Position numbers and translations under genes: made by a program. 64,000 nt of DNA from Shigella phage KPS64: the sequence record MK562502. One strand, 5' to 3'. Shown piece after piece: positions 1 through 27,467 of this stretch. Each line of letters starts with the position of its first letter. Position 1 is the first letter of the stretch. The notes below the pieces were generated by a model. That model did not search any database. It had not been told where the DNA came from and saw only the letters and a program-made list of their open reading frames with translations.

Positions 1-2373
1 TTATTCCCAACAGTTGGTATCTTCTGGGATGCTCTTAGTGTCAAAACCTAAAAACTTACCAACTTCGACGGGTGATACTTTATTCCAATCCAGATTAGAA
101 AGCAAGAAGTTTTCTTTACGGCGTTTCTCAAAGTAATCTTTGAACTTACTTTCAAGACGCTTCTTAGCGTTATCCAGAACCTTTCTTGGCTTACAAGAGC
201 CTCTCATATTCCTGCGAATGGTATCAAGAGTGCTGGTAATATCTTTGTAAGCAACTGGTGCAGCAGTGTATGCCAAGCGTCCAAACATTGCTTCTATAGC
301 CTCTTCATTCCCCTCTAAGAAAATAGTCTTCTTAAAGTCTTTACTGTAAATGTGGCCTCTGGACTTACGCTTATCAGCAAACATAAAGTTTCGAGAAATC
401 ACATTACAATCAGTAATATCATGATTATTAGTCATATATTGGTGAGTCAAGAAACGATGATACTCAATCCAATGTGTAGCATCAATGAAATCTTTCATCA
501 CTTGTTCATTGACTTCTGTCCAGTCTTCAGGAATCTTTTTCCAGTTGGCTTTACGGAAGACATAAACTGACTGTCCAGTTAACTCTGTTATCAACGTTGC
601 AGCACGTTCTGGTGAACATGAGAAGATTCCACCAATCACTTCATCACTCTGTGCTTTGATATACAGTTGTGGTTCTTCAATCTCATCAAAGTTCTCTTTA
701 ACCTCTGTATAACGAATCATGTAAGTATTTGGACATATAAATGCTTTATACAGTTTTACAACACCACGTACAATAGTACGTTTTTCATAGTGGTGCTCTT
801 TAGATGACATTGTATGCACACTTAACAGACTCTTGTCAAGCATATGCAAAGCTACAAACTCATCAAATTGCTGCTGACTGCTGAACAAGAAAGCAATACC
901 ATTGTAGCGACGGAAGTTAGAGTCTTCCTGTTCACGGTCACGGCAAGCTCCACGGATAATCTGGTTTTTACCAGTTGTCTTCTCAGACCCGTTCTTGTTT
1001 CGACGGTCATTAATAAGGAACAAATAGTTGCTCAACTTATCTTTACTCATTGCACCAAAGATACTAAACATTGCTGCATCTTGTGAATAAGTTGCTGAAG
1101 TTGCTCGAATACGGTTCTCCAGACTGCTGTACTTGTAGTATGCTACAGGTTCATACAGATTACCAATATTAGGAACTGGATTACCATCTTTGTCAAGCCT
1201 CAAGTTACCTGCATCATCTTTCAAGAATGACGGAGAACCATCTGCTTCAGTTAACTGACCACGACGGATACCTAACAGTTTTTGTTCAAGCTTTTTCAAG
1301 TTCTGGCCTTGCCATTCCAGAGAATCTTGGACGTGAATAAAGATTTCACGAGCCTCCTTCCTCATGGTATCATAGGCTTGAGCAGCATCAATCAGAGTTG
1401 GCTTGTTAGCAATCTCTTTTACCACATCTTCTACGATTGTCTTAGTGATTTTCTTCACAGCTTCAACAATCTTGGTCTTAGTGGTCTCATTCATCTGCAA
1501 TGCTTCACGAGATGCAGCAATAGCCACTGAACCAATTGGCATGTAGATGTTAACAAGGTCTACAGCACTACGGAAGAACTGAGGCAGAATGCTTGTAAAC
1601 TCTGAACCAAGCAACTCACCCATTTCAACAGGATAAGCAATATTACCCATGATTACATTGAAATGGACACTGTTACTATTTGAACGCCAGCTCTCTTTGT
1701 ACTTCATTGCATCATAGACACCCTCTTCACGAGAAATGGAAGTCATTGCTTCAAGAATGTCATAGTACTCAACATTACACTCTGGCTTAACTTTAAAGTA
1801 CGAGTATACATTGCTCGCTTCTTCATGAAACTTGTTGATACGGTTATCGGATACCGCTACTCGAACAGCTAAACCATTTGGCTCTGTAGTTGGGTTAGTA
1901 GTCAACTTAGTTACTTGAGGGATACCATTCTCAAGGTAAACTGAGTATTTGTTAACTACACCATCAACATAGCTTGATACAGTGAATGACTGAGCAATTG
2001 CAAATGGGGACTTTGAACCGATACCCATAGCACCAATGTAGTCGTTTGAATCGTTCTTTGTAGATTCTCCATAGGTCATGTAAAGTTTCATAACTTTATC
2101 ATGAGTCAGTCCTGTACCAAAGTCACGAACTTCAAAGAATGGCTCAAAACGAGTTGGTAAGTGAACCAAGAAAGGTTTATCAACGTTACCAGAATCAATG
2201 TGAGCATCTACTGCGTTGCATGACAATTCACGAATTACAGCACGTTCTTTATATGTGTAAACACCTGAGCTTAGAAGACTGAACATTTCAGGTGTCATCT
2301 TAATCTGAGCCTGAGAGGTTTCCAGTGTACTTGAGCTTTTAATTACCGTTGCGTGGTCATTTACCATGCGCAT
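1..2373 (-). CDS. rIIA-like protein with N-terminal GHKL-type ATPase motifs
   Basis: 790-aa ORF, stop TAA at 1-3. N-terminal segment (RELSCNAVDAH ... DFGTGL ... GAMGIGSKS) resembles histidine-kinase/Hsp90-type ATP-binding motifs as in T4 rIIA. Motif recognition only. Confidence 0.45.
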   Translation of the reverse strand: MRMVNDHATVIKSSSTLETSQAQIKMTPEMFSLLSSGVYTYKERAVIRELSCNAVDAHIDSGNVDKPFLVHLPTRFEPFFEVRDFGTGLTHDKVMKLYMTYGESTKNDSNDYIGAMGIGSKSPFAIAQSFTVSSYVDGVVNKYSVYLENGIPQVTKLTTNPTTEPNGLAVRVAVSDNRINKFHEEASNVYSYFKVKPECNVEYYDILEAMTSISREEGVYDAMKYKESWRSNSNSVHFNVIMGNIAYPVEMGELLGSEFTSILPQFFRSAVDLVNIYMPIGSVAIAASREALQMNETTKTKIVEAVKKITKTIVEDVVKEIANKPTLIDAAQAYDTMRKEAREIFIHVQDSLEWQGQNLKKLEQKLLGIRRGQLTEADGSPSFLKDDAGNLRLDKDGNPVPNIGNLYEPVAYYKYSSLENRIRATSATYSQDAAMFSIFGAMSKDKLSNYLFLINDRRNKNGSEKTTGKNQIIRGACRDREQEDSNFRRYNGIAFLFSSQQQFDEFVALHMLDKSLLSVHTMSSKEHHYEKRTIVRGVVKLYKAFICPNTYMIRYTEVKENFDEIEEPQLYIKAQSDEVIGGIFSCSPERAATLITELTGQSVYVFRKANWKKIPEDWTEVNEQVMKDFIDATHWIEYHRFLTHQYMTNNHDITDCNVISRNFMFADKRKSRGHIYSKDFKKTIFLEGNEEAIEAMFGRLAYTAAPVAYKDITSTLDTIRRNMRGSCKPRKVLDNAKKRLESKFKDYFEKRRKENFLLSNLDWNKVSPVEVGKFLGFDTKSIPEDTNCWE

Positions 2374-2948: not shown

Positions 2949-2970
2949 TAAAAAGGCTCCCGTAGGAGCC
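2949..2970 (-). terminator. rho-independent terminator (minus strand)
   Basis: Hairpin GGCTCC-CGTA-GGAGCC followed by a T-run on the minus strand, downstream of the NAMPT-like gene. Confidence 0.5.
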
Positions 2971-2985
2971 TCTTATCATACTGTT

Positions 2986-4803
2986 TTAAAGTTGCTTGTC
3001 AATAGTATTTCGAACATCACGCAGGTTAACGTAACCATAAGGTTGCGAGTTACTAAATACCAGTTTCAAAGCACTATGACAGTTGTCAATTGCACCTTCA
3101 AACTCTGCAAAGCCAAAACCATCTACAGCTACCAGCTTGTCACCATCCCACATAGGGACGACTCCACCAAAAGCAGACTTCTTAAGACCACTGTCAGTTT
3201 TAGGGTCTTTAGCCAGCATAATTTCTTGACCATCCATCTGTGCAAGAGTTGCTTTAACAGCAAATGCAAAGGTGTCACGAGTCAGGTACTGATAGGTGTA
3301 TGAGCCTACACCAAACACTACGTTAGAACTTGCAAAACCTTTATCAGCAAGACGTGACAGAATCTCATTAGCCCTTTCCAGAGTGATAGAATCACCGTAG
3401 ATTAGTCCAATGTGCTCATCCAGTACTTTGTACCCTTTGGAGTTAATAGTGCCACCAAAGATGTTATACAGCGTGTGGATAGCTCCGTCAATTTCTGCTG
3501 TCAGCATACGCTTCACAGTAAACTGTCCAGTTTTCTGAGCGGTAATCAGGTTGATTGTATCAGCAGATTCAAAATCTTCTTTATCAACAACCATCTCATA
3601 ACCTTCAGAGATTAGCCAAGCAGAGAACCCAAAGCCAATATCAGACATTTCACAATTCAAGATTGTGTCATGCAGATGTGTATTGTTCGGTGCAAGCTCT
3701 TTCATGTGCTTATAGAACATTGACTTAGCAGTTTCCCATTCAATGGCTTTGTAACCTGTAACAATGTGAACAGGGTCTCCAGAGTCTGGACGAATTACCA
3801 ACTTACCATCACGATTCAGAATTACATTACGTAGCTCTGGCAGAATCTGTGTAACAGTACGCCAGAAGTTGTAAGTATCTGATACGGCACTTGCAATACC
3901 AGTTGGGTAAACTTCTGTCAGAAGGCGATGGAAAGTTTCTACCTCACCACGCCAACGCATTGCATCAAGTAAGTTGTCAGAATGCGATAGATGCCAATCA
4001 CTTACCTCTTTGTTAAGACTGTTCCATGAGATGTTTGCACACATCACAGAGTGCTCAGTAGCTGGGACAGAGTTACCAATCTCACCTACATTCATAAACT
4101 GACCATATGCACGTTTAGCTGTATATACAGCAGGGAAGCTGTCAGTACCTTTAAAACTTGTCAGGTGACCTACTGCGTTAAACGCATCATCTGTGAAGCC
4201 AGACATACCACGCATTGCAAAGTCATGACACTGCCAAGGTAAATGGAAGTCGTTGTCACAGGTCTTGTCAGCCCATTGCTTACAAATACGTTTGTAGTGC
4301 AGTGCAATTGTTGCAATCGTACAAGCTTTCCAGATTTCAGCAGAGAAAGCATCTTCAAGGTAACCAGCTACCCAATGGAATCCCTCTACAGTGTTTTTGA
4401 ATACAATCATCGGGACACGCATAGGGACAATTGTACCTTCCTCTACAGAGTAGACTTCAACAGGTAGGTAGCCCAAGTCATGAAGTTCTTCCCAATGTTG
4501 ACGACCAATAGCATCTGCACCGAGAACACCATTCATGATTTCCAAGATTTCGTCAATGGCTTCTTTCTTATCACGTTCAAAGAACGTTGCATTCCAGTGG
4601 TCTACCAGATAGTCTTTTACAAAACGCTGAATACCAAAGGCTACAACACCATCAATCTCTAACGGAGAGTTAAACCATTTGTCTCCACGAGGTGTTAAGT
4701 TCAGCATAAGATACTGTGTAGCATCTGGATACTGGTAGAAATGGCCAGATTTGTAGGCATCTGCATTAAGTGCTGCTGGTACTGCATAAAGTGATTTAGT
4801 CAT
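2986..4803 (-). CDS. nadV: nicotinamide phosphoribosyltransferase family protein (NAMPT/NadV-like; possible Namat)
   Basis: 605-aa ORF with NAMPT-like N-terminus and length; AG-rich RBS region upstream. Confidence 0.8.
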   Translation of the reverse strand: MTKSLYAVPAALNADAYKSGHFYQYPDATQYLMLNLTPRGDKWFNSPLEIDGVVAFGIQRFVKDYLVDHWNATFFERDKKEAIDEILEIMNGVLGADAIGRQHWEELHDLGYLPVEVYSVEEGTIVPMRVPMIVFKNTVEGFHWVAGYLEDAFSAEIWKACTIATIALHYKRICKQWADKTCDNDFHLPWQCHDFAMRGMSGFTDDAFNAVGHLTSFKGTDSFPAVYTAKRAYGQFMNVGEIGNSVPATEHSVMCANISWNSLNKEVSDWHLSHSDNLLDAMRWRGEVETFHRLLTEVYPTGIASAVSDTYNFWRTVTQILPELRNVILNRDGKLVIRPDSGDPVHIVTGYKAIEWETAKSMFYKHMKELAPNNTHLHDTILNCEMSDIGFGFSAWLISEGYEMVVDKEDFESADTINLITAQKTGQFTVKRMLTAEIDGAIHTLYNIFGGTINSKGYKVLDEHIGLIYGDSITLERANEILSRLADKGFASSNVVFGVGSYTYQYLTRDTFAFAVKATLAQMDGQEIMLAKDPKTDSGLKKSAFGGVVPMWDGDKLVAVDGFGFAEFEGAIDNCHSALKLVFSNSQPYGYVNLRDVRNTIDKQL

Positions 4804-4847
4804 CTTTTTATCTCTCTCAAAGTGGGGCTTTTCAGCCCCTAAAGTTG

Positions 4848-5747
4848 TTATTCAATATTTGCTACGGTCACTTGTGGGAAGTGGGAAAGACCACGGTCTT
4901 TTTCATCCCCGAGTGAGTTTGTAGTGTAGATATGGTCGATGCCATTGTCAAGAAGATTTTCAACACCTTTAGAGAAAATCCCATGAGTCACATACAGTTC
5001 TACACGTTCTGCTCCAGCTTCACGAAGATACTTTGCAGCCTCAATGAAGGTACGACCACCGTCACAGATATCATCCAGAATCATGACAGTCTTACCTGTT
5101 AAGTCTACATCATCAAGTATTCGCATACCAGTGATTTCACCAGTTTTCAGGTTTCGTACCTTAGCCATTGTAATGTAAGGTTTCTCAACCTCTTTAGCAG
5201 CCTCTTCAGTCTTCTTAGCTGCACCTGCATCTGGAGCCACTAAGTAATCAATGCGTGGGTCACTTGCAAAGTGGACTGCTGCCTCTTTTTGAGGGAGGTT
5301 GTAGAAGCTCTTAAACAAATTCTCTGCAACATTACTGTGAGTATCCAGAGCACATACTGCATCGAACTCCATAGCATTTACAAGATTTGCAAAGACTTTA
5401 AGTGCTGCTGCATCACCTTTAAACATGTGACGGTCATAGCGAGCATTTGGTAAGAATCCAAAGACAACAGTTTTCAGAGTTGCTTTCTGAGGAATCAAAC
5501 GGTCAATTGCTTCTTTAGCCATAGCCAATGCAAAGAGTGTGTCTTTGTCATAACCTTGTACAGTGAATATTACGTTTTCAATCTTACCAGCAGCATGTTC
5601 AGCAAAGTCTACTAAGTCTTCTGAGAAGTTACCACCAATCTCCCCAGAAGGGAACTGGATAATGTTGAAGGTCTCTTGATGAGAACCTTTGGAATTTGAA
5701 TTAAGTAGAACTCGAATAGTAGTTTTCATAATATCTCTCTCAGTCAA
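4848..5747 (-). CDS. ribose-phosphate pyrophosphokinase family protein (Prs-like; possible ADP-ribose pyrophosphokinase)
   Basis: 299-aa ORF; FPSGE, NARYDRH and ILDDICDGGRT segments match the Prs/PRTase type I fold. Confidence 0.7.
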   Translation of the reverse strand: MTERDIMKTTIRVLLNSNSKGSHQETFNIIQFPSGEIGGNFSEDLVDFAEHAAGKIENVIFTVQGYDKDTLFALAMAKEAIDRLIPQKATLKTVVFGFLPNARYDRHMFKGDAAALKVFANLVNAMEFDAVCALDTHSNVAENLFKSFYNLPQKEAAVHFASDPRIDYLVAPDAGAAKKTEEAAKEVEKPYITMAKVRNLKTGEITGMRILDDVDLTGKTVMILDDICDGGRTFIEAAKYLREAGAERVELYVTHGIFSKGVENLLDNGIDHIYTTNSLGDEKDRGLSHFPQVTVANIE

Positions 5748-6045
5748 AAGTTACAAATGTTACAGCCATAGCTGATTTACATTTCTTTGGGTCTACAATG
5801 TGGTAGATAACTGAACAGTTTCCTGTTCCGTCTGGTACTGGTTTTGTCCAAGTACGTTCAATATTTGGCTCTCCAAACTCTTTATAGAATCCGTTGGAGT
5901 AGTGGTCTATCATCTCAATAGCAAGTGCATCTGGGACGTGACCACGCATCATATACATCTCACTACCATTTCCAGCTTCGCTAATAAGCTCTTTGATATC
6001 CCATTGTTCTCTAGCCATGATAAGTTGCCTCATAAACTGTCTCAA
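5740..6045 (-). CDS. hypothetical protein
   Basis: 101-aa ORF, 4-nt start/stop overlap with the Prs-like gene; no motif. Confidence 0.35.
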   Translation of the reverse strand: MRQFMRQLIMAREQWDIKELISEAGNGSEMYMMRGHVPDALAIEMIDHYSNGFYKEFGEPNIERTWTKPVPDGTGNCSVIYHIVDPKKCKSAMAVTFVTFD

Positions 6046-6526
6046 GCTTCAACAAGAGTGATATTGCCAGAACTGCATATTCCCTGTCAAGCATTGGTGG
6101 CATATTATTTTTAAGATATGCTTTCTGTTCCTCCCAAGTCATCTTAGGGGCTTCTGGAAGCTTCTCTCCTTGCTTCTGGTTATCTTCTTGAGTCTGGATA
6201 AACCAGTTCGAGCAATGGTGCTCTCCACCTTTTGTCACGGGCTTATGGTGGCCTAATGTGAAAGCTTTCTTTCCAGAATATCTACAAAGCTTATTAAGGG
6301 TTGCAATAGTATTCTTGACAACACAGTATTCATAGAGGTTGTCAATAGTGTAATGAGGGTAGTACTGGAACAAGGCACTATCACGGAACTTACCACGGTT
6401 CCAAAGCACCATGTGATTAGAATTTGAGGGGTCATACTGATGTGACTCGATGAACTCTTGACGCTCATCAAAATCAAGACGAAGAACAGACATTGCAGCA
6501 GCACGTTTCAGATTTGAATGGTACAT
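6011..6526 (-). CDS. putative HNH-type endonuclease
   Basis: 171-aa ORF containing GHHKPVTKGGEHHCSNW, resembling the HNH His-Asn-His core. Weak. Confidence 0.3.
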   Translation of the reverse strand: MYHSNLKRAAAMSVLRLDFDERQEFIESHQYDPSNSNHMVLWNRGKFRDSALFQYYPHYTIDNLYEYCVVKNTIATLNKLCRYSGKKAFTLGHHKPVTKGGEHHCSNWFIQTQEDNQKQGEKLPEAPKMTWEEQKAYLKNNMPPMLDREYAVLAISLLLKLETVYEATYHG

Positions 6527-16638: not shown

Positions 16639-16868
16639 TAAGCCTCCTTATCTTCAAACAACTTTTGTTGAGACTCAATATAGTCCATTCGTTCTTTGAG
16701 TTCAACACGTTTGCTTAACAGATGTTGAATTTGTGATTCCAGAGCATCCATCTCAGCTTCTGTAGCTGACTTAGCTTTACTGATAGTTTCCTTCAGTGCT
16801 GCTACGCCACTCTGGATTTTAGAAACATGGTCATTTTTGATTTTATTAAACATTTTAAACTCTCTCAT
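16638..16868 (-). CDS. hypothetical coiled-coil protein
   Basis: 76-aa ORF with heptad-like charged repeats. Confidence 0.35.
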   Translation of the reverse strand: MREFKMFNKIKNDHVSKIQSGVAALKETISKAKSATEAEMDALESQIQHLLSKRVELKERMDYIESQQKLFEDKEA

Positions 16869-17355
16869 TAAGTTTCATGATTTTAGTGATTCTCTTCTCA
16901 GCTTCATCATAAGTCTCTTTTGTAAGAAACTTGATTGCTGCAATGTTCGCATTGTAGAAGAGTCGAAGCTTAGAGTCAATCCTTTTTGTCATGACGTCAA
17001 ACTTATGTTGTAGGTTAGCTTCGCCATAAACTAAGCCACCTCGCGTATAGTAAGTCTGGATGATGTAGAAGTCAAACTCTTTTTCACCAAAAGATTCAAT
17101 ATCCTTCTTAATGTACTCAGAAGATGTTTGATAAGTCATCCAATCACTTTCTTTTGTCACGACTTTACGTCTGGTCTTTCCAGCAACCTTTTTCTTAGTG
17201 ACGTTATTAAATTGTTTCTTTCCAATATAATATTGTCCAGTTTTCTTACAGTATACTAAATAGACAAAACCAAAATAGTTAGCGGGGTCAATTTCCCCAC
17301 ACAGTGAAACCCAATGTCCATAAACAGGGCAATTTCCAAATCCTTTAATCTTCAT
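16855..17355 (-). CDS. putative GIY-YIG family endonuclease
   Basis: 166-aa ORF; FVYLVYCKKTGQYYIGKK fits the GIY-(10-11)-YIG spacing. Confidence 0.4.
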   Translation of the reverse strand: MKIKGFGNCPVYGHWVSLCGEIDPANYFGFVYLVYCKKTGQYYIGKKQFNNVTKKKVAGKTRRKVVTKESDWMTYQTSSEYIKKDIESFGEKEFDFYIIQTYYTRGGLVYGEANLQHKFDVMTKRIDSKLRLFYNANIAAIKFLTKETYDEAEKRITKIMKLNERV

Positions 17356-21968: not shown

Positions 21969-22709
21969 TTACAGATTGATAATGGTTTTAAGTTTGCTCT
22001 CTAATTCTTCCATCGTTCCATTATTCTGGATAATATCACGAGAGAAGTTGGTGGAGATACCACGTTCAGAGCTATGGGAAGCCACCTGAATAGCATCTTT
22101 TCTTGTAATTTCAATTATCTGACTATCATAGCTTTGAAGGAACTCAGCTTCAATATCAAACCTTAAATCACATACCAGTGCAATACCTATGTGACTTTTC
22201 TTAACGCAATCACCATAGAATTTTTCAATACGTTCTGCCAAATCTGTAATCCAGAAACGCTCTCCAAGAATTTTACGGATAACCTCACTACCCCATACCT
22301 GCTGTATTTGTCTTGAGGAAATTATATATTCATTTTTCAAACCAAGCTTTGTAAGCAATGTAGGTTTACCAACTTTCTTTAACTCTTTGATAAGCCTGTC
22401 TGTGATTTCCCCACAAAGTTTTGCATCATCTTGTATACCCTTGCTTTTCATGTTTATATTGAAAGCCCATGCCACACGAGAGTTAAGGTTGTCAAAATCT
22501 AAGCTAAACTTTTTAGGCGTTTCTTTCGTATCACCGTATAGGTCGTGCCAGTTTAAGTCAAAGATAAATCCAGCAGTTGCTTTTAAGTTATCGGCAAACG
22601 CAAACACTTTAACAGTGTATCCTGCCTCATTCAATAGATTTTTTACAATGCTGCAAGACGTATCCTTTCCAGAACGAGCTTTTCCAGTAAATGCAATAAC
22701 ACTTTTCAT
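21969..22709 (-). CDS. deoxynucleoside monophosphate kinase
   Basis: P-loop AFTGKARSGKDT near the N-terminus, as in T4 gp1-type dNMP kinases. Start set at MKSVIAF, preceded by GGAG. Confidence 0.6.
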   Translation of the reverse strand: MKSVIAFTGKARSGKDTSCSIVKNLLNEAGYTVKVFAFADNLKATAGFIFDLNWHDLYGDTKETPKKFSLDFDNLNSRVAWAFNINMKSKGIQDDAKLCGEITDRLIKELKKVGKPTLLTKLGLKNEYIISSRQIQQVWGSEVIRKILGERFWITDLAERIEKFYGDCVKKSHIGIALVCDLRFDIEAEFLQSYDSQIIEITRKDAIQVASHSSERGISTNFSRDIIQNNGTMEELESKLKTIINL

Positions 22710-22766
22710 ATAAGTCACTCCATAATAAAAAGCCCCCAATTAAGGAGGCTTAAGGGTATGCCACAA

Positions 22767-24244: not shown

Positions 24245-26944
24245 ATGGACAATGTAGATTTCGAAAAATTACATTTGGTTGGTGATACAGAAACTGATGG
24301 GTTGCTCCTTGAGTTTACAAAAGCACACGTAATGGCTTTCGCAGACTATAAAGATGACAGTGACGAACCTGCTGTGTGGGTGTTCACTGATGAGCCTATT
24401 CTTGGTCACAAGTATACAAAATACATCAAAGGTGGTCTGCGTGAAGGTGTTGAGTTTGCACTGAAAGCTAAACGTCTTTGTATCCACAATGGTCTTGGTT
24501 ATGACTGGTGGGTGTTTAATCACATTGCACCTGACCTGTGGAACTTTGAGAATCCTAAGTGTAAACCTTGGAGTGACTTCTTTCAGGATTCACTTATCCA
24601 ATCTCGCGTACAGTGGATGGATAGACCTACGCCAAAAGGTTACAAAGGTGCTCATGGTTTGGCTGCATGGGGTGCTCGTGTAGGTGTCCGTAAACCAGAG
24701 ATTGAAGAGTGGGGTGTCTGGAATGCAGAGATTCTTACTCGTGTTGTAGAAGATATTAAGATTAACGCCAAAACTAAACGTGCTCTTGATAATGAGTACC
24801 TCAAGCTTAAGAAGTGTGGTGTTGACACTTATGAAACCTACATGCGAGCTAAAGAAACATCCTTCTGGATGAGTCAGCAAGCTATCAACGGTTGGAAAGC
24901 TGATGTAGAGCTTATGCAGTTCCACGTTAAAGAGCTTGACAAGTTAACTAATGAGTTGGCTGCTGAGGTTGAACCACACCTTCCACCAACTATTAAGACA
25001 AAAGGTAAAGTCACAGGTGAAGAATTTGCCAAGTCTTGGAATGAGTATGTAGATACATTTGGTCACGTTGACGGTTTAAAAAGGATTACCAAGTACCCTA
25101 AGACAAAGTATCGAGAACAGATGCGTGAAGGTGAGTTGAAGCAGTACCCTATCAAGCCATATGGTAAGCCAACCACAAAGATTTTTAATGTTGAGAAACG
25201 CAACTGCTACACCCCAACTAACACGGTAACTAAAGAAGAGTACCCTGAAGGTTTTGTAGCAATGAAAGATGCTCGTGCAGTTTGTAATGAACTGAATGAG
25301 AAGATTGGCAAGAAGTGTAAAGATTGGAAGCCAGTTAAGACTGTGAAAACTGTGAAGTACTACAACGTTCACGTTGTTAATCACTTTGAGTTAGAGTCTA
25401 GTCGCTACACTGGTTTGATTGATGCACCATTCACACCAATTGAGTTTGAAGTTTCACGAATGACTCAGGTAGCTGTGGTGAAGGATTACTTAAAATCCGT
25501 TGGCTGGATTCCTGATGATTGGAACTATAAAAAAGATTCTGATGGTCGTCCTATCAAGGTTTGCAGATTCAAAGACAACAAAAAGATGATTCGCAAACAT
25601 CCTAAGTGGGATGAGATGGTTGAGCGTTGTGGGTTGAACTATATTGAGCATGAAGGTGTCTATTACATCGAGCATAACTGGTCTGTTAAGAAGTACACAG
25701 ATGTGCTTGAGCCTTGCTTGATTAGGACTTCACCAAAGCTTACAGAGTCTTCTTATGATACAATCGAAGGTGAGCTTGGACAGAAGATTGCGAAGTACTA
25801 TACTTTGATGCACCGTCGCAGGACTATTGAGAACTCAAAGGATGATGAGAAAGGTTGGCTGAACCAGATTCGTCCAGATGGTCGTTTGAGTGCAGGTGCA
25901 ATGGTATTTGGTACTTCTACTGGACGTATGACTCAGTATGGTATTGTAAACGTACCTTCTGGTGCTGCCGTGTACGGTGAACCAATGAGGGCAGTGTGGA
26001 TTTGTGAAGAGGGAACCAACGTAGTATCTGTTGATATGAACTCTGCACAGCTTGTACTACTCTGTAACTTCATGGGTGATAAAGACTTCACCAAAGCGGT
26101 AACAGAGGGTAAAGAAGAGATTGAGTTTGTTCGTCAAGAGGATGGAAGATACTACTGCAAACACTTTGACCAGTATCTGAATCCAGAGATTGACAAGTAT
26201 CTGCGTTACGACTCTGAAAACGATTTGTACGTAGTTTACTCAGGTACTGATGCTCACACTCTGAACAGTATCTACTTCAGCCTTAATGATGAGCAAGATA
26301 TCTTGACTTGTCGTGCTACTCAGGATGAGAATCTTCTTCATGAGATTAGCAAGGGACGTAAGAAAGCTAAGAATGGTATCTATGCCCTGTTGTTCGGTGC
26401 AGGGGATGAGAAGTTTGCCAAGACAATTAAAGCAGCAACTACTCAGGAAGGTGCATTGACTAAGCAGACTTACTTTGTGCGTTTGCCGAAGATTAAGAAA
26501 CTGTTAGACAACTTGGAAGCTGATTTCAAAGCAACTAAGAAAGCACTTGAAGAGGTGTTTGGTAAAACTGCTGCAATCTCTAAAGGTGGTTTTGTGAAGG
26601 TTGCTGGGGCTTGGCTGTGGTGTAAGTCTCCACACAAACTCTTGAACTATTTGCTGATGGGTTCAGAAGCACAAGTTCAGAATGAAGCAATCAACCTTGC
26701 ATGTCGTAGAGCCTATGATGAAGGGTTGATGAAGCTGAATGGACGTAAGCCAGCTATTGGAGCTAGACTTCTTCTGGCATACCACGATGAAAATAGTTGG
26801 GAATGTCCAGAAAGTATGACTCAAGAGGTTAAAGCTATCACTGACTGGATGTACGGGCAGGCTTCTAAAAACCTTGGTCTAAGAAAAGAAACTATGGTTA
26901 CAGGTACTGGTAAGGTTGGTAAGAGCTGGTTGGAAGTGCATTGA
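24245..26944 (+). CDS. DNA polymerase, family A, with 3'-5' exonuclease domain
   Basis: 899-aa ORF; exo motif DTETDGL, pol motif A-like SVDMNSAQLVLL, motif B-like RKKAKNGIYALLFG, motif C-like AYHDE. Confidence 0.9.
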   Translation: MDNVDFEKLHLVGDTETDGLLLEFTKAHVMAFADYKDDSDEPAVWVFTDEPILGHKYTKYIKGGLREGVEFALKAKRLCIHNGLGYDWWVFNHIAPDLWNFENPKCKPWSDFFQDSLIQSRVQWMDRPTPKGYKGAHGLAAWGARVGVRKPEIEEWGVWNAEILTRVVEDIKINAKTKRALDNEYLKLKKCGVDTYETYMRAKETSFWMSQQAINGWKADVELMQFHVKELDKLTNELAAEVEPHLPPTIKTKGKVTGEEFAKSWNEYVDTFGHVDGLKRITKYPKTKYREQMREGELKQYPIKPYGKPTTKIFNVEKRNCYTPTNTVTKEEYPEGFVAMKDARAVCNELNEKIGKKCKDWKPVKTVKTVKYYNVHVVNHFELESSRYTGLIDAPFTPIEFEVSRMTQVAVVKDYLKSVGWIPDDWNYKKDSDGRPIKVCRFKDNKKMIRKHPKWDEMVERCGLNYIEHEGVYYIEHNWSVKKYTDVLEPCLIRTSPKLTESSYDTIEGELGQKIAKYYTLMHRRRTIENSKDDEKGWLNQIRPDGRLSAGAMVFGTSTGRMTQYGIVNVPSGAAVYGEPMRAVWICEEGTNVVSVDMNSAQLVLLCNFMGDKDFTKAVTEGKEEIEFVRQEDGRYYCKHFDQYLNPEIDKYLRYDSENDLYVVYSGTDAHTLNSIYFSLNDEQDILTCRATQDENLLHEISKGRKKAKNGIYALLFGAGDEKFAKTIKAATTQEGALTKQTYFVRLPKIKKLLDNLEADFKATKKALEEVFGKTAAISKGGFVKVAGAWLWCKSPHKLLNYLLMGSEAQVQNEAINLACRRAYDEGLMKLNGRKPAIGARLLLAYHDENSWECPESMTQEVKAITDWMYGQASKNLGLRKETMVTGTGKVGKSWLEVH

Positions 26945-26954
26945 TGGTGTTGAA

Positions 26955-27467
26955 ATGATTACAGAAATTCGTTTAAAGGAGCTTTTAGAGTACGACCCCG
27001 ATACAGGGGTCTTTACTTGGAAATTTAGAGAAGGTAATGCAAACTTTAACTCTAGATTTGGAGGTAAGAGGGCTGGAAACTATAGAACAAACACTGATGG
27101 TCACAAGTCTGTCCAATTGCTGATTGATGGAAGGAGTTACCAAGCAAATCGTTTAGTTATCTTGTATATGGATGGATACCTACCTGATAAAACCTTACAG
27201 GTTGACCACAAGAATTGTGATGGTTGGGATAATAGATATTTGAATTTGAGGGTTTGTACGGCTTCACAAAACTCTTGCAATCGGTCTAGAAAGTCCATAT
27301 CAGGTTTACCAAAAGGTGTACAGAAGATAGGGAAAAGGTTTAGGGCAGTGATTCGTTTACAAGGTAATAATTACCATCTTGGGATGTATGACACACCTGA
27401 AGAAGCCCACGAAGCTTACTGTGAAGCTGCTATAAAACTCCACGGAGATTTTGCAAAACTTAGTTGA
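26955..27467 (+). CDS. HNH homing endonuclease with AP2-type DNA-binding domain
   Basis: HNH core (VDHKNCDGWDNRYLNLRVCTASQN) and C-terminal AP2-like segment (YHLGMYDTPEEAHEAYCEAAIKLHGDFA). Start placed at the first in-frame ATG after the polymerase stop. Confidence 0.7.
   Translation: MITEIRLKELLEYDPDTGVFTWKFREGNANFNSRFGGKRAGNYRTNTDGHKSVQLLIDGRSYQANRLVILYMDGYLPDKTLQVDHKNCDGWDNRYLNLRVCTASQNSCNRSRKSISGLPKGVQKIGKRFRAVIRLQGNNYHLGMYDTPEEAHEAYCEAAIKLHGDFAKLS

Follow-up and report, generated by a model that had tools for sequence, protein, structure and literature searches.

The window analysed here, a 64,000-nucleotide stretch of Shigella phage KPS64 (MK562502), carries two adjacent genes on the minus strand, adps followed 44 nt downstream by namat (Table 1). 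Both open reading frames lie where an initial annotation had placed them, and the Prs-like and NAMPT-like families proposed there are backed by Pfam, PHROG and NCBIfam profiles. For the Prs-like protein a length of 299 residues had been given, and a maximal open reading frame of that size does exist (4848-5747), but it begins at a TTG (5747) that overlaps the upstream gene's stop codon (5740-5742). The ATG at 5729 is preceded by GAGAGAG and is the annotated start in every relative. Because of this ribosome-binding site and the upstream stop codon, the ATG is the most likely start, from which the gene encodes 293 residues, beginning with MKTTIR. The pair is set in a block of nucleotide-metabolism genes comprising nrd genes, glutaredoxin, dNMP kinase, thymidylate synthase and DHFR.

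Table 1. Positions of the adps-namat genes, their RNA elements and the protein features discussed in the text (window coordinates)
Feature	Position	Strand	Description
Intrinsic terminator	2951..2974	-	closes the adps-namat transcription unit; fold energy -16.6 kcal/mol, z = -4.5
namat	2986..4803	-	605 aa; NAMPT family, predicted nicotinamide ADP-ribose transferase
Namat selectivity-clamp helix (SCH)	3274..3306	-	GSYTYQYLTRD, residues 500-510; coordinates checked by translation
Namat insertion 2	3487..3753	-	residues 351-439, ~90 aa, relative to SPbetaL1 Namat; small, autonomous alpha/beta subdomain
Namat insertion 1	3955..4032	-	residues 258-283, ~26 aa, relative to SPbetaL1 Namat; helical; conservation 0.34
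Namat His251	4051..4053	-	PATEHS motif; conserved catalytic His of the Nampt-like core, invariant in alignments
Namat selectivity-clamp loop (SCL)	4657..4692	-	PRGDKWFNSPLE, residues 38-49
Intergenic hairpin	4824..4839	-	GGGGCT-GAAA-AGCCCC, between adps and namat; -12.8 kcal/mol, z = -3.7
adps	4848..5729	-	293 aa from the most likely start; Prs family, predicted ADP-ribose pyrophosphokinase (ADPR-PP synthetase)
Adps Lys190	5160..5162	-	aligns with SPbetaL1 K162 (B. subtilis Prs K197)

Two RNA hairpins accompany the genes. The terminator noted just downstream of the pair is real: on the minus strand, from 2974 to 2951, it reads AAGAGGCTCC-TACG-GGAGCCTTTT and then a T-rich tail, it folds stably (Table 1), and its sequence is identical in the Escherichia phage JohannRWettstein (Bas63). 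Likewise present in Bas63 is the intergenic hairpin, which is followed by the GAGAGAG ribosome-binding site of namat and may act in attenuation or in stabilizing the mRNA.

Profile searches assign both proteins to their families with E-values that rule out chance matches. Namat is recognized by Pfam PF04095 NAPRTase (E 8.5e-32) and PF18127 NAMPT_N, by PHROG 448 'nicotinamide phosphoribosyl transferase' (E 1e-199) and by NCBIfam NF006629 (465 bits against a cut-off of 405). Similarly, Adps matches PF14572 Pribosyl_synth, PF00156 and PHROG 619 'ribose-phosphate pyrophosphokinase' (E 5e-99). The sole Prs threshold that it passes belongs to TIGR01251, a broad subfamily model (129.7 bits against 113). 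Adps stays far under the equivalog and subfamily cut-offs of genuine Prs, reaching 98.8 bits against 297 for PRK01259, and scores 107 against 296 for PRK00934 and 74 against 438 for PRK03092.

The closest relatives of the locus place these assignments in a well-studied context. The window shares 98.8% DNA identity with Shigella phage Sf13 of the Ounavirinae (Mooglevirus), and its gene order nrdA, nrdB, grx, nrdD, nrdG, two small genes, adps, namat and rIIA is common to Bas63. The pair has syntenic orthologues in Bas63 genes 79-80, with protein identities of 81% and 76%. It was in this operon that Osterman et al. discovered NARP1, NAD+ reconstitution pathway 1 (bioRxiv 10.1101/2024.02.11.579819). 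In their study Bas63 without the two genes formed ~20-fold fewer plaques on SIR2-HerA cells, in which NAD+ was also lower; protection remained when the host lacked both pncC and nadR, and ADPR-PP (m/z 720.010) was seen only when wild-type Bas63 met the defence system. The purified enzymes of Bacillus phage SPbetaL1 converted ADPR and ATP to ADPR-PP, and ADPR-PP and nicotinamide to NAD+ (bioRxiv 10.1101/2024.02.11.579819). In Bacillus, the NARP1 operons of SPbetaL1 and FADO counter several NAD+-depleting systems, though not type II Thoeris. Tables S1 and S2 of the discovery paper list the proteins of Sf13, 3HA14 and Michonne as Adps and 'Adps-associated' Namat (bioRxiv 10.1101/2024.02.11.579819), and these are 97-99.8% identical to the pair in the window. 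The proposal that the two genes form an Adps/Namat module for NAD+ reconstitution is thus strengthened by orthology to Bas63, by the same gene order and by these near-identical tabled proteins. We put the probability that the pair is the two-gene NARP1 counter-defence operon of an Ounavirinae phage at roughly 0.93. As NARP1 was first identified in another phage of the Ounavirinae, and proteins almost identical to these two have been catalogued before, the system is a known, published and characterized one, and no new biology is added here.

For Adps, identity is 81% to the Bas63 protein and 97-98% to those of Sf13 and 3HA14. It drops to 33% for SPbetaL1 Adps in a local BLASTP alignment, which is hardly separated from the 29% found for E. 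coli Prs, and it is therefore orthology to Bas63, together with the published tree, that carries the clade call. On these grounds the protein appears to be a member of the phage Adps clade and not a cellular Prs. The catalytic lysine is conserved as Lys190, and mutation of its SPbetaL1 equivalent (K162A) gives an inactive enzyme (bioRxiv 10.1101/2024.02.11.579819). The same study found that SPbetaL1 Adps yields no measurable product in a control reaction for Prs activity, and that Bas63 Adps 'did not purify well' (bioRxiv 10.1101/2024.02.11.579819).

Namat is 76% identical to its Bas63 counterpart, 99.8% to Sf13 gp73 and 46% to SPbetaL1 Namat (MAFFT alignment). The initial annotation had suggested comparing both proteins with characterized Adps/Namat and NadV/Prs enzymes. 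Adps leans only slightly to the SPbetaL1 side in raw identity. Among PDB sequences, Namat is closest to the Namat structure 9w5w/9w5x (E 3e-125), with human NAMPT at ~1e-40. An AF2 model (pLDDT 92.3) finds 'Crystal structure of Namat' as its top Foldseek match (E 1.6e-54, target-normalised TM 0.94). The Nampt-like core is kept at D15, Y17, F195, R198, D221, H251, R338, D340, G470, D471, G500, S501, R509 and D510. Of the residues that contact NAD+ in SPbetaL1 Namat, only S190 and A362 differ, and both are conservatively replaced (by A196 and S472, respectively).

The features that distinguish Namat from other Nampt-like enzymes lie in the adenine clamp. The helix motif described for Namat, GSX-phi-X-phi-X-phi-TRD, has aromatic residues in its third and seventh positions (PMC12774641); in the window the predicted adenine-stacking aromatics are Y502 and Y506, which align with SPbetaL1 F392 and Y396. 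At these two positions aromatics are missing from the comparators: a KVP40-like Nampt has Gly and Gln, H. ducreyi NadV has Gln and Arg, and Xanthomonas Nampt is non-aromatic. In the clamp loop, Arg, Lys or Tyr occupies the third position, and where this is Lys or Tyr the following residue stacks on adenine (PMC12774641). K42-W43, aligned with R40-V41 of SPbetaL1 and shared with Bas63, fits the Bas63-type arrangement of a lysine followed by a putative stacking residue. The view that the sequence cannot distinguish NadV and Prs from the ADPR-based route does not hold, as GSYTYQYLTRD and K42-W43 are both present in this protein and the Nampt and NadV enzymes compared lack the helix aromatics.

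Together with the published biochemistry, these findings lead us to infer that the two proteins of the window catalyse the reactions of their Bas63 and SPbetaL1 homologues. A host defence of the NADase type (SIR2-HerA/Nezha, DSR, type I Thoeris, Kongming or similar) would split NAD+ into ADP-ribose and nicotinamide. Adps would then transfer pyrophosphate from ATP onto ADP-ribose at its free ribose C1'', so that ADPR-pyrophosphate forms, and Namat would swap the pyrophosphate for nicotinamide to yield NAD+ directly. The clamp at the entrance of the Namat pocket, formed here by Y502 and Y506 of the helix and K42-W43 of the loop, is expected to favour ADPR-PP over PRPP because it stacks on the adenine. 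Nevertheless, Namat still makes NMN from PRPP in vitro (bioRxiv 10.1101/2024.02.11.579819; PMC12774641).

Several NARP variants carry further genes, and we searched for these around the pair. By hmmscan, which is less sensitive than the HHpred search of the NARP1 paper, the two genes on each side gave no Pfam match, and no Macro, RyR or Nudix domain was found in them. A counterpart of the Sf13 Macro-domain protein was not found anywhere in the 64-kb window. As no gene lies between adps and namat, an RyR-domain glycosidase of the RyDEP type was not found inside the operon. Among the 20 unassigned ORFs scanned (CTP_transf_like and NUDIX profiles; 64 kb of the ~88-kb genome) there was no match to Nmnat, Nudix or Macro, and an Nmnat-type gene is not annotated in close relatives, including 3HA14. 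With no Macro, RyR or Nmnat partner gene found, the locus is read as a plain two-gene NARP1.

Two other explanations have to be weighed against a NARP1 counter-defence operon. The same chemistry could mainly serve metabolic housekeeping by recycling ADPR generated during infection, so that NAD+ is kept for phage replication. The nucleotide-metabolism block around the pair would suit such a role, as would chromosomal homologues in Enterobacteriaceae that adjoin an NrtR-like regulator of NAD metabolism, which suggests housekeeping use in cells. It is nonetheless very unlikely to be the main role in the phage, given that in Bas63 ADPR-PP appears only with a defence system present and loss of the genes reduces plating on SIR2-HerA cells, and that the SPbetaL1 and FADO operons act against NAD+-depleting systems in Bacillus. 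Classical salvage, with the Prs-like protein making PRPP from ribose-5-phosphate, the NadV-like protein making NMN from PRPP and nicotinamide, and host NadR or PncC finishing NAD+, has next to no chance of being correct: the annotation of every relative as 'ribose-phosphate pyrophosphokinase' and 'nicotinamide phosphoribosyltransferase', the generic family thresholds passed by both proteins and the in vitro synthesis of NMN by Namat speak for it, but they are opposed by the Bas63 orthologues, which protect a pncC nadR double-deletion host and give ADPR-PP in vivo, by SPbetaL1 Adps, which gave ADPR-PP from ADPR and ATP but no measurable product in the Prs control, by the Namat-specific clamp, by the low Prs scores of Adps and by the failure to find an Nmnat-type gene among the ORFs scanned or the annotations of close relatives.

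Within the NARP1 operon, the sole undescribed detail of the gene pair is two insertions in Namat, for neither of which we found a discussion in the cited NARP1 literature. Both are poorly conserved and together account for ~115 aa. Insertion 1 varies in length among Ounavirinae alignments. Insertion 2 is confidently folded in the model, and no recognizable fold relative was found for its subdomain. It could conceivably add a property beyond the minimal enzyme, such as docking of Adps to channel the labile ADPR-PP, regulation or an altered donor range, but we consider this doubtful. A weaker variant of this idea takes two genes upstream of the pair, of 171 aa and 92 aa and transcribed together with it, as lineage-specific NARP1 accessories. 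We rejected such a connection and explain the association by synteny within the lineage; in phage PaulScherrer the family of the 171-aa gene adjoins a UvrD helicase rather than NARP1, and that of the 92-aa gene is limited to Felixounavirus-like and Mooglevirus-like phages.

NARP1 is a means by which phages undo NAD+ depletion, which is among the commonest strategies of abortive infection. Its presence leads to the prediction that this phage and its Mooglevirus relatives plate on hosts with SIR2-, TIR- or DSR-type NADases. The aRES system yields ADPR-1''-phosphate, and since a gene for a Macro-domain phosphatase was not found near the pair, the phage is expected to be sensitive to it. Such predictions help to estimate phage host range and to select therapeutic phages that target Shigella, E. 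coli and Citrobacter. A practical outcome is re-annotation, as the misleading names 'Prs' and 'NadV' are still found in public records.

The pair can be compared with cellular enzymes and with several phage systems. Cellular E. coli Prs (class I) and H. ducreyi NadV (PDB 9ke8) share their folds and type of chemistry with the pair, and the latter reads GAQTYQRNTRD where Namat in the window has its aromatic clamp. NARP2, consisting of Nampt and Nmnat in Vibrio phage KVP40 and its relatives, shares the Nampt fold, the core His, the Arg-x-Asp motif and the Phe/Tyr that stacks on nicotinamide; it uses PRPP and needs Nmnat, whereas Namat in the window has the clamp aromatics. The KVP40-like Nampt of phage R11Z, the one with Gly and Gln at the aromatic positions of the helix, is 31% identical to Namat in the window. 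At its locus no Prs-like partner adjoins the gene, and the neighbours gave no Pfam match when a KVP40-type Nmnat was sought. Two extended systems have the core pair in common with the window: NARP1-AP of Vibrio phage Gary, which comprises Adps, the Macro-domain phosphatase Adpp and Namat, and the RyDEP-extended NARP1 of mycobacteriophage DyoEdafos. The additional Macro and RyR genes were not found here within two genes of the pair.

NARP1 of SPbetaL1 (Adps WIT26982, Namat WIT26983; 9w5w, 9w5x; PMC12774641) has the same two-gene order and the same catalytic Adps lysine. Its Namat, the top structural match, agrees with that of the window in the NAD+-contact residues and the helix motif, but at 491 aa it is without both insertions, and its clamp loop uses Arg40 directly instead of a Lys-Trp pair. 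Closest of all is Bas63 (bas63_0079/bas63_0080), a member of the same subfamily with the same gene order, flanks, intergenic hairpin and terminator, whose Namat has the same K42-W43, the same helix aromatics and the same two insertions. The differences are small: Bas63 is a Felixounavirus and the phage of the window a Mooglevirus, insertion 1 is 11 residues longer in the window (Namat of 605 aa) than in Bas63 (593 aa), and position 8 of the clamp helix is Leu in the window and Met in Bas63.

The initial annotation read a NAMPT-like and a Prs-like gene, adjacent on one strand and closely followed by a terminator, as a likely NAD+ reconstitution pair. Orthology and synteny with Escherichia phage JohannRWettstein (Bas63), near-identical proteins in published tables and a diagnostic motif support this reading, and the ORF coordinates and domain matches confirm the arrangement. 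The NAMPT-like ORF matches Pfam NAPRTase (E 8.5e-32) and NAMPT_N, PHROG 448 (E 1e-199) and NCBIfam NF006629 (465 bits, cut-off 405), while the Prs-like ORF matches Pribosyl_synth and Pribosyltran, PHROG 619 (E 5e-99) and TIGR01251 (129.7 bits, cut-off 113). The Prs-like gene is present as described, but 299 residues is the length of the maximal ORF only. Most likely the gene starts at the ATG at 5729, yielding 293 residues; this codon has GAGAGAG ahead of it, sits 11 nt past the stop codon of the upstream gene and is the annotated start in all relatives. The downstream terminator is a strong intrinsic one, identical in Bas63. Also kept in Bas63 is a hairpin in the 44-nt gap between the genes, which might curb read-through or make the transcript more stable.

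Coordinates of the NARP1 genes, their signals and the Namat insertions in the window
Feature	Coordinates	Strand	Details
namat, NAMPT-like ORF	2986-4803	minus	605 aa
adps, Prs-like ORF	4848-5747	minus	299 aa as maximal ORF
Intrinsic terminator after namat	2974-2951	minus	-16.6 kcal/mol, z = -4.5
GC hairpin in adps/namat gap	4824-4839	minus	16 nt, GGGGCT-GAAA-AGCCCC
Two small genes upstream of adps	5740-6526	minus	same terminator-bounded unit as adps-namat
Namat insertion 258-283	3955-4032	minus	relative to SPbetaL1 Namat
Namat insertion 351-439	3487-3753	minus	~90 aa, relative to SPbetaL1 Namat

This system has already been described in the same phage subfamily. NARP1, the pair of an ADP-ribose pyrophosphokinase (Adps) and a nicotinamide ADP-ribose transferase (Namat), was discovered as genes 79-80 of the Felixounavirus Bas63 (MZ501086) (bioRxiv 10.1101/2024.02.11.579819). 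The fetched Bas63 locus has the same gene order as the window, and over their full lengths Adps is 81% identical to bas63_0079 and Namat 76% to bas63_0080. On SIR2-HerA cells, loss of genes 79-80 from Bas63 lowered plaque numbers ~20-fold and deepened NAD+ depletion; the genes still protected in a pncC nadR double-deletion host, and ADPR-pyrophosphate (m/z 720.010) was seen only for wild-type phage on defence-carrying cells (bioRxiv 10.1101/2024.02.11.579819). Tables S1 and S2 of that study list proteins of Sf13, 3HA14 and Michonne as Adps homologues with associated Namat and as 'Adps-associated' Namat (bioRxiv 10.1101/2024.02.11.579819). Compared with these, the window's Adps is 97-98% and its Namat 99.8% identical, so that near-identical proteins are catalogued as NARP1.

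In the proposed pathway, host NADase effectors would release ADP-ribose and nicotinamide, Adps would move the pyrophosphate of ATP onto ADP-ribose, and Namat would replace this pyrophosphate with nicotinamide. NAD+ would thereby be regained in two steps that need no host salvage enzyme. Both reactions were demonstrated with enzymes of Bacillus phage SPbetaL1, with in vivo support from Bas63 (bioRxiv 10.1101/2024.02.11.579819). Family assignment, orthology and residue conservation were observed for the proteins studied here; by analogy with SPbetaL1 and Bas63, they very probably carry out the same reactions (probability about 0.93).

For Adps, K190 corresponds to SPbetaL1 K162, whose replacement by alanine abolishes activity (bioRxiv 10.1101/2024.02.11.579819). 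The protein scores far below all NCBIfam equivalog thresholds set for genuine Prs. With 33% identity to SPbetaL1 Adps and 29% to E. coli Prs, it cannot be placed by these values alone, so its clade assignment depends on Bas63 orthology and the published tree.

Neither a Macro-domain (Adpp) nor a RyR-domain (RyDEP) gene occurs within two genes of adps-namat, and 20 unassigned ORFs of the window that were scanned gave no Nmnat, Nudix or Macro domain. The window therefore carries a plain two-gene NARP1. This form is expected to fail against aRES, a host defence whose product is ADPR with a 1''-phosphate. Terminator-like sites at 6566-6545 and after namat flank four co-oriented genes, namely adps, namat and two small genes of 171 aa (PHROG 3500, weak HNH similarity) and 92 aa (PHROG 4726). 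A functional tie of the small genes to NARP1 was rejected: the 171-aa family is not beside NARP1 in phage PaulScherrer and the 92-aa family is confined to this phage's lineage, and the association was therefore attributed to synteny.

Shigella phage Sf13 (Ounavirinae, Mooglevirus) shares 98.8% DNA identity with the region, and numerous phages of Shigella, Citrobacter and Escherichia share 92-99%. Relatives that name the genes all use 'nicotinamide phosphoribosyltransferase' and 'ribose-phosphate pyrophosphokinase'. The gene order is rIIA, two small genes, namat, adps, two small genes, an HNH gene, nrdG, nrdD, grx, nrdB and nrdA. The end of rIIA coincides exactly with the start of the window (1-2373). 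Since coordinates over the first ~6.5 kb match the deposited records of 3HA14 and Michonne, the first nucleotide of the window is probably base 1 of a Mooglevirus genome record. Sf13 gp59, a 264-aa Macro-domain protein (comparison locus L004, 1237-2031; PF01661, E 3.5e-8) and a conceivable Adpp-like ADPR-1''-phosphate phosphatase, is encoded ~7.5 kb from namat, past rIIA and rIIB; it has no counterpart in window 1-64000, and a similar gene, if present in this phage, sits outside.

Overlapping the namat 3' end and its terminator is a near-consensus sigma-70-like promoter (2975-3002, minus; TTGACA, 16-nt spacer, TATGAT; 11/12 matches), which probably drives the small genes 2597-2932 and 2436-2615. 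A deoxynucleotide monophosphate kinase is encoded at 21969-22739 (minus; Pfam DNMK, E 1.7e-18). As phage dNMP kinase triggers the NAD+-depleting Kongming defence and NARP1 counters it (PMC12774641), the phage may carry both trigger and antidote. Two homing-endonuclease-type genes were also seen: HNH_3 + AP2 (26916-27467, plus) directly after the DNA polymerase gene, at a site with only small ORFs in 3HA14, and a SegE-like GIY-YIG gene (16855-17355, minus).

Owing to two insertions, Ounavirinae Namat is ~115 aa longer than the crystallised SPbetaL1 enzyme. The insertion 351-439 is predicted as a confident stand-alone small alpha/beta unit (pLDDT 91.8), for which no fold or Pfam relative was found. 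Conservation is 0.34 in 258-283 and 0.44 in 351-439, against ~0.75 in the core, and the Namat structure paper mentions neither (PMC12774641). Both are probably decoration, and a functional role is unlikely. The closest insertion-free relatives of the window's Namat (45% identity, 496 aa; P0069, P0081, P0085, P0097) are encoded on chromosomes of Klebsiella, Phytobacter, Kosakonia and Erwinia with the Namat-type motif GS[YF]TYQYNTRD. In Klebsiella michiganensis (locus L011 3127-5491, contig DAHJTQ010000013.1), the Namat-like gene follows a gene for a 289-aa Adps-like protein, 42% identical to the window's, and has a divergent NUDIX + WHD_NrtR regulator gene as its neighbour. The arrangement suggests a chromosomal NARP1-like pair that an ADPR-sensing NrtR may control.

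A 2026 structural study described a Namat 'selectivity clamp' with two parts: the helix motif GSX-phi-X-phi-X-phi-TRD, in which positions 3 and 7 are aromatics that pack onto the ADPR-PP or NAD+ adenine, and a variable loop contributing one more stacking residue (PMC12774641). The window's Namat has the helix GSYTYQYLTRD, with aromatics Y502 and Y506, and a Bas63-type loop, K42-W43. It keeps the catalytic histidine H251 and the SPbetaL1 NAD+-contact residues D15, Y17, F195, R198, D221, R338, D340, G470, D471, G500, S501, T508, R509 and D510; two contacts are conservatively changed (S190 to A196, A362 to S472). Its best PDB sequence match is a Namat structure (E 3e-125; human NAMPT ~1e-40), and the top Foldseek match of its AlphaFold model (pLDDT 92.3) is 'Crystal structure of Namat' (E 1.6e-54, target-normalised TM 0.94). 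The view that sequence cannot tell the ADPR route from classical salvage was too cautious: judged by the clamp motif, the two can be separated. In place of the two aromatics, Gly and Gln occur in a KVP40-like Nampt, Gln and Arg in H. ducreyi NadV (9ke8) and non-aromatic residues in Xanthomonas Nampt, whereas the phage protein carries the Namat motif.
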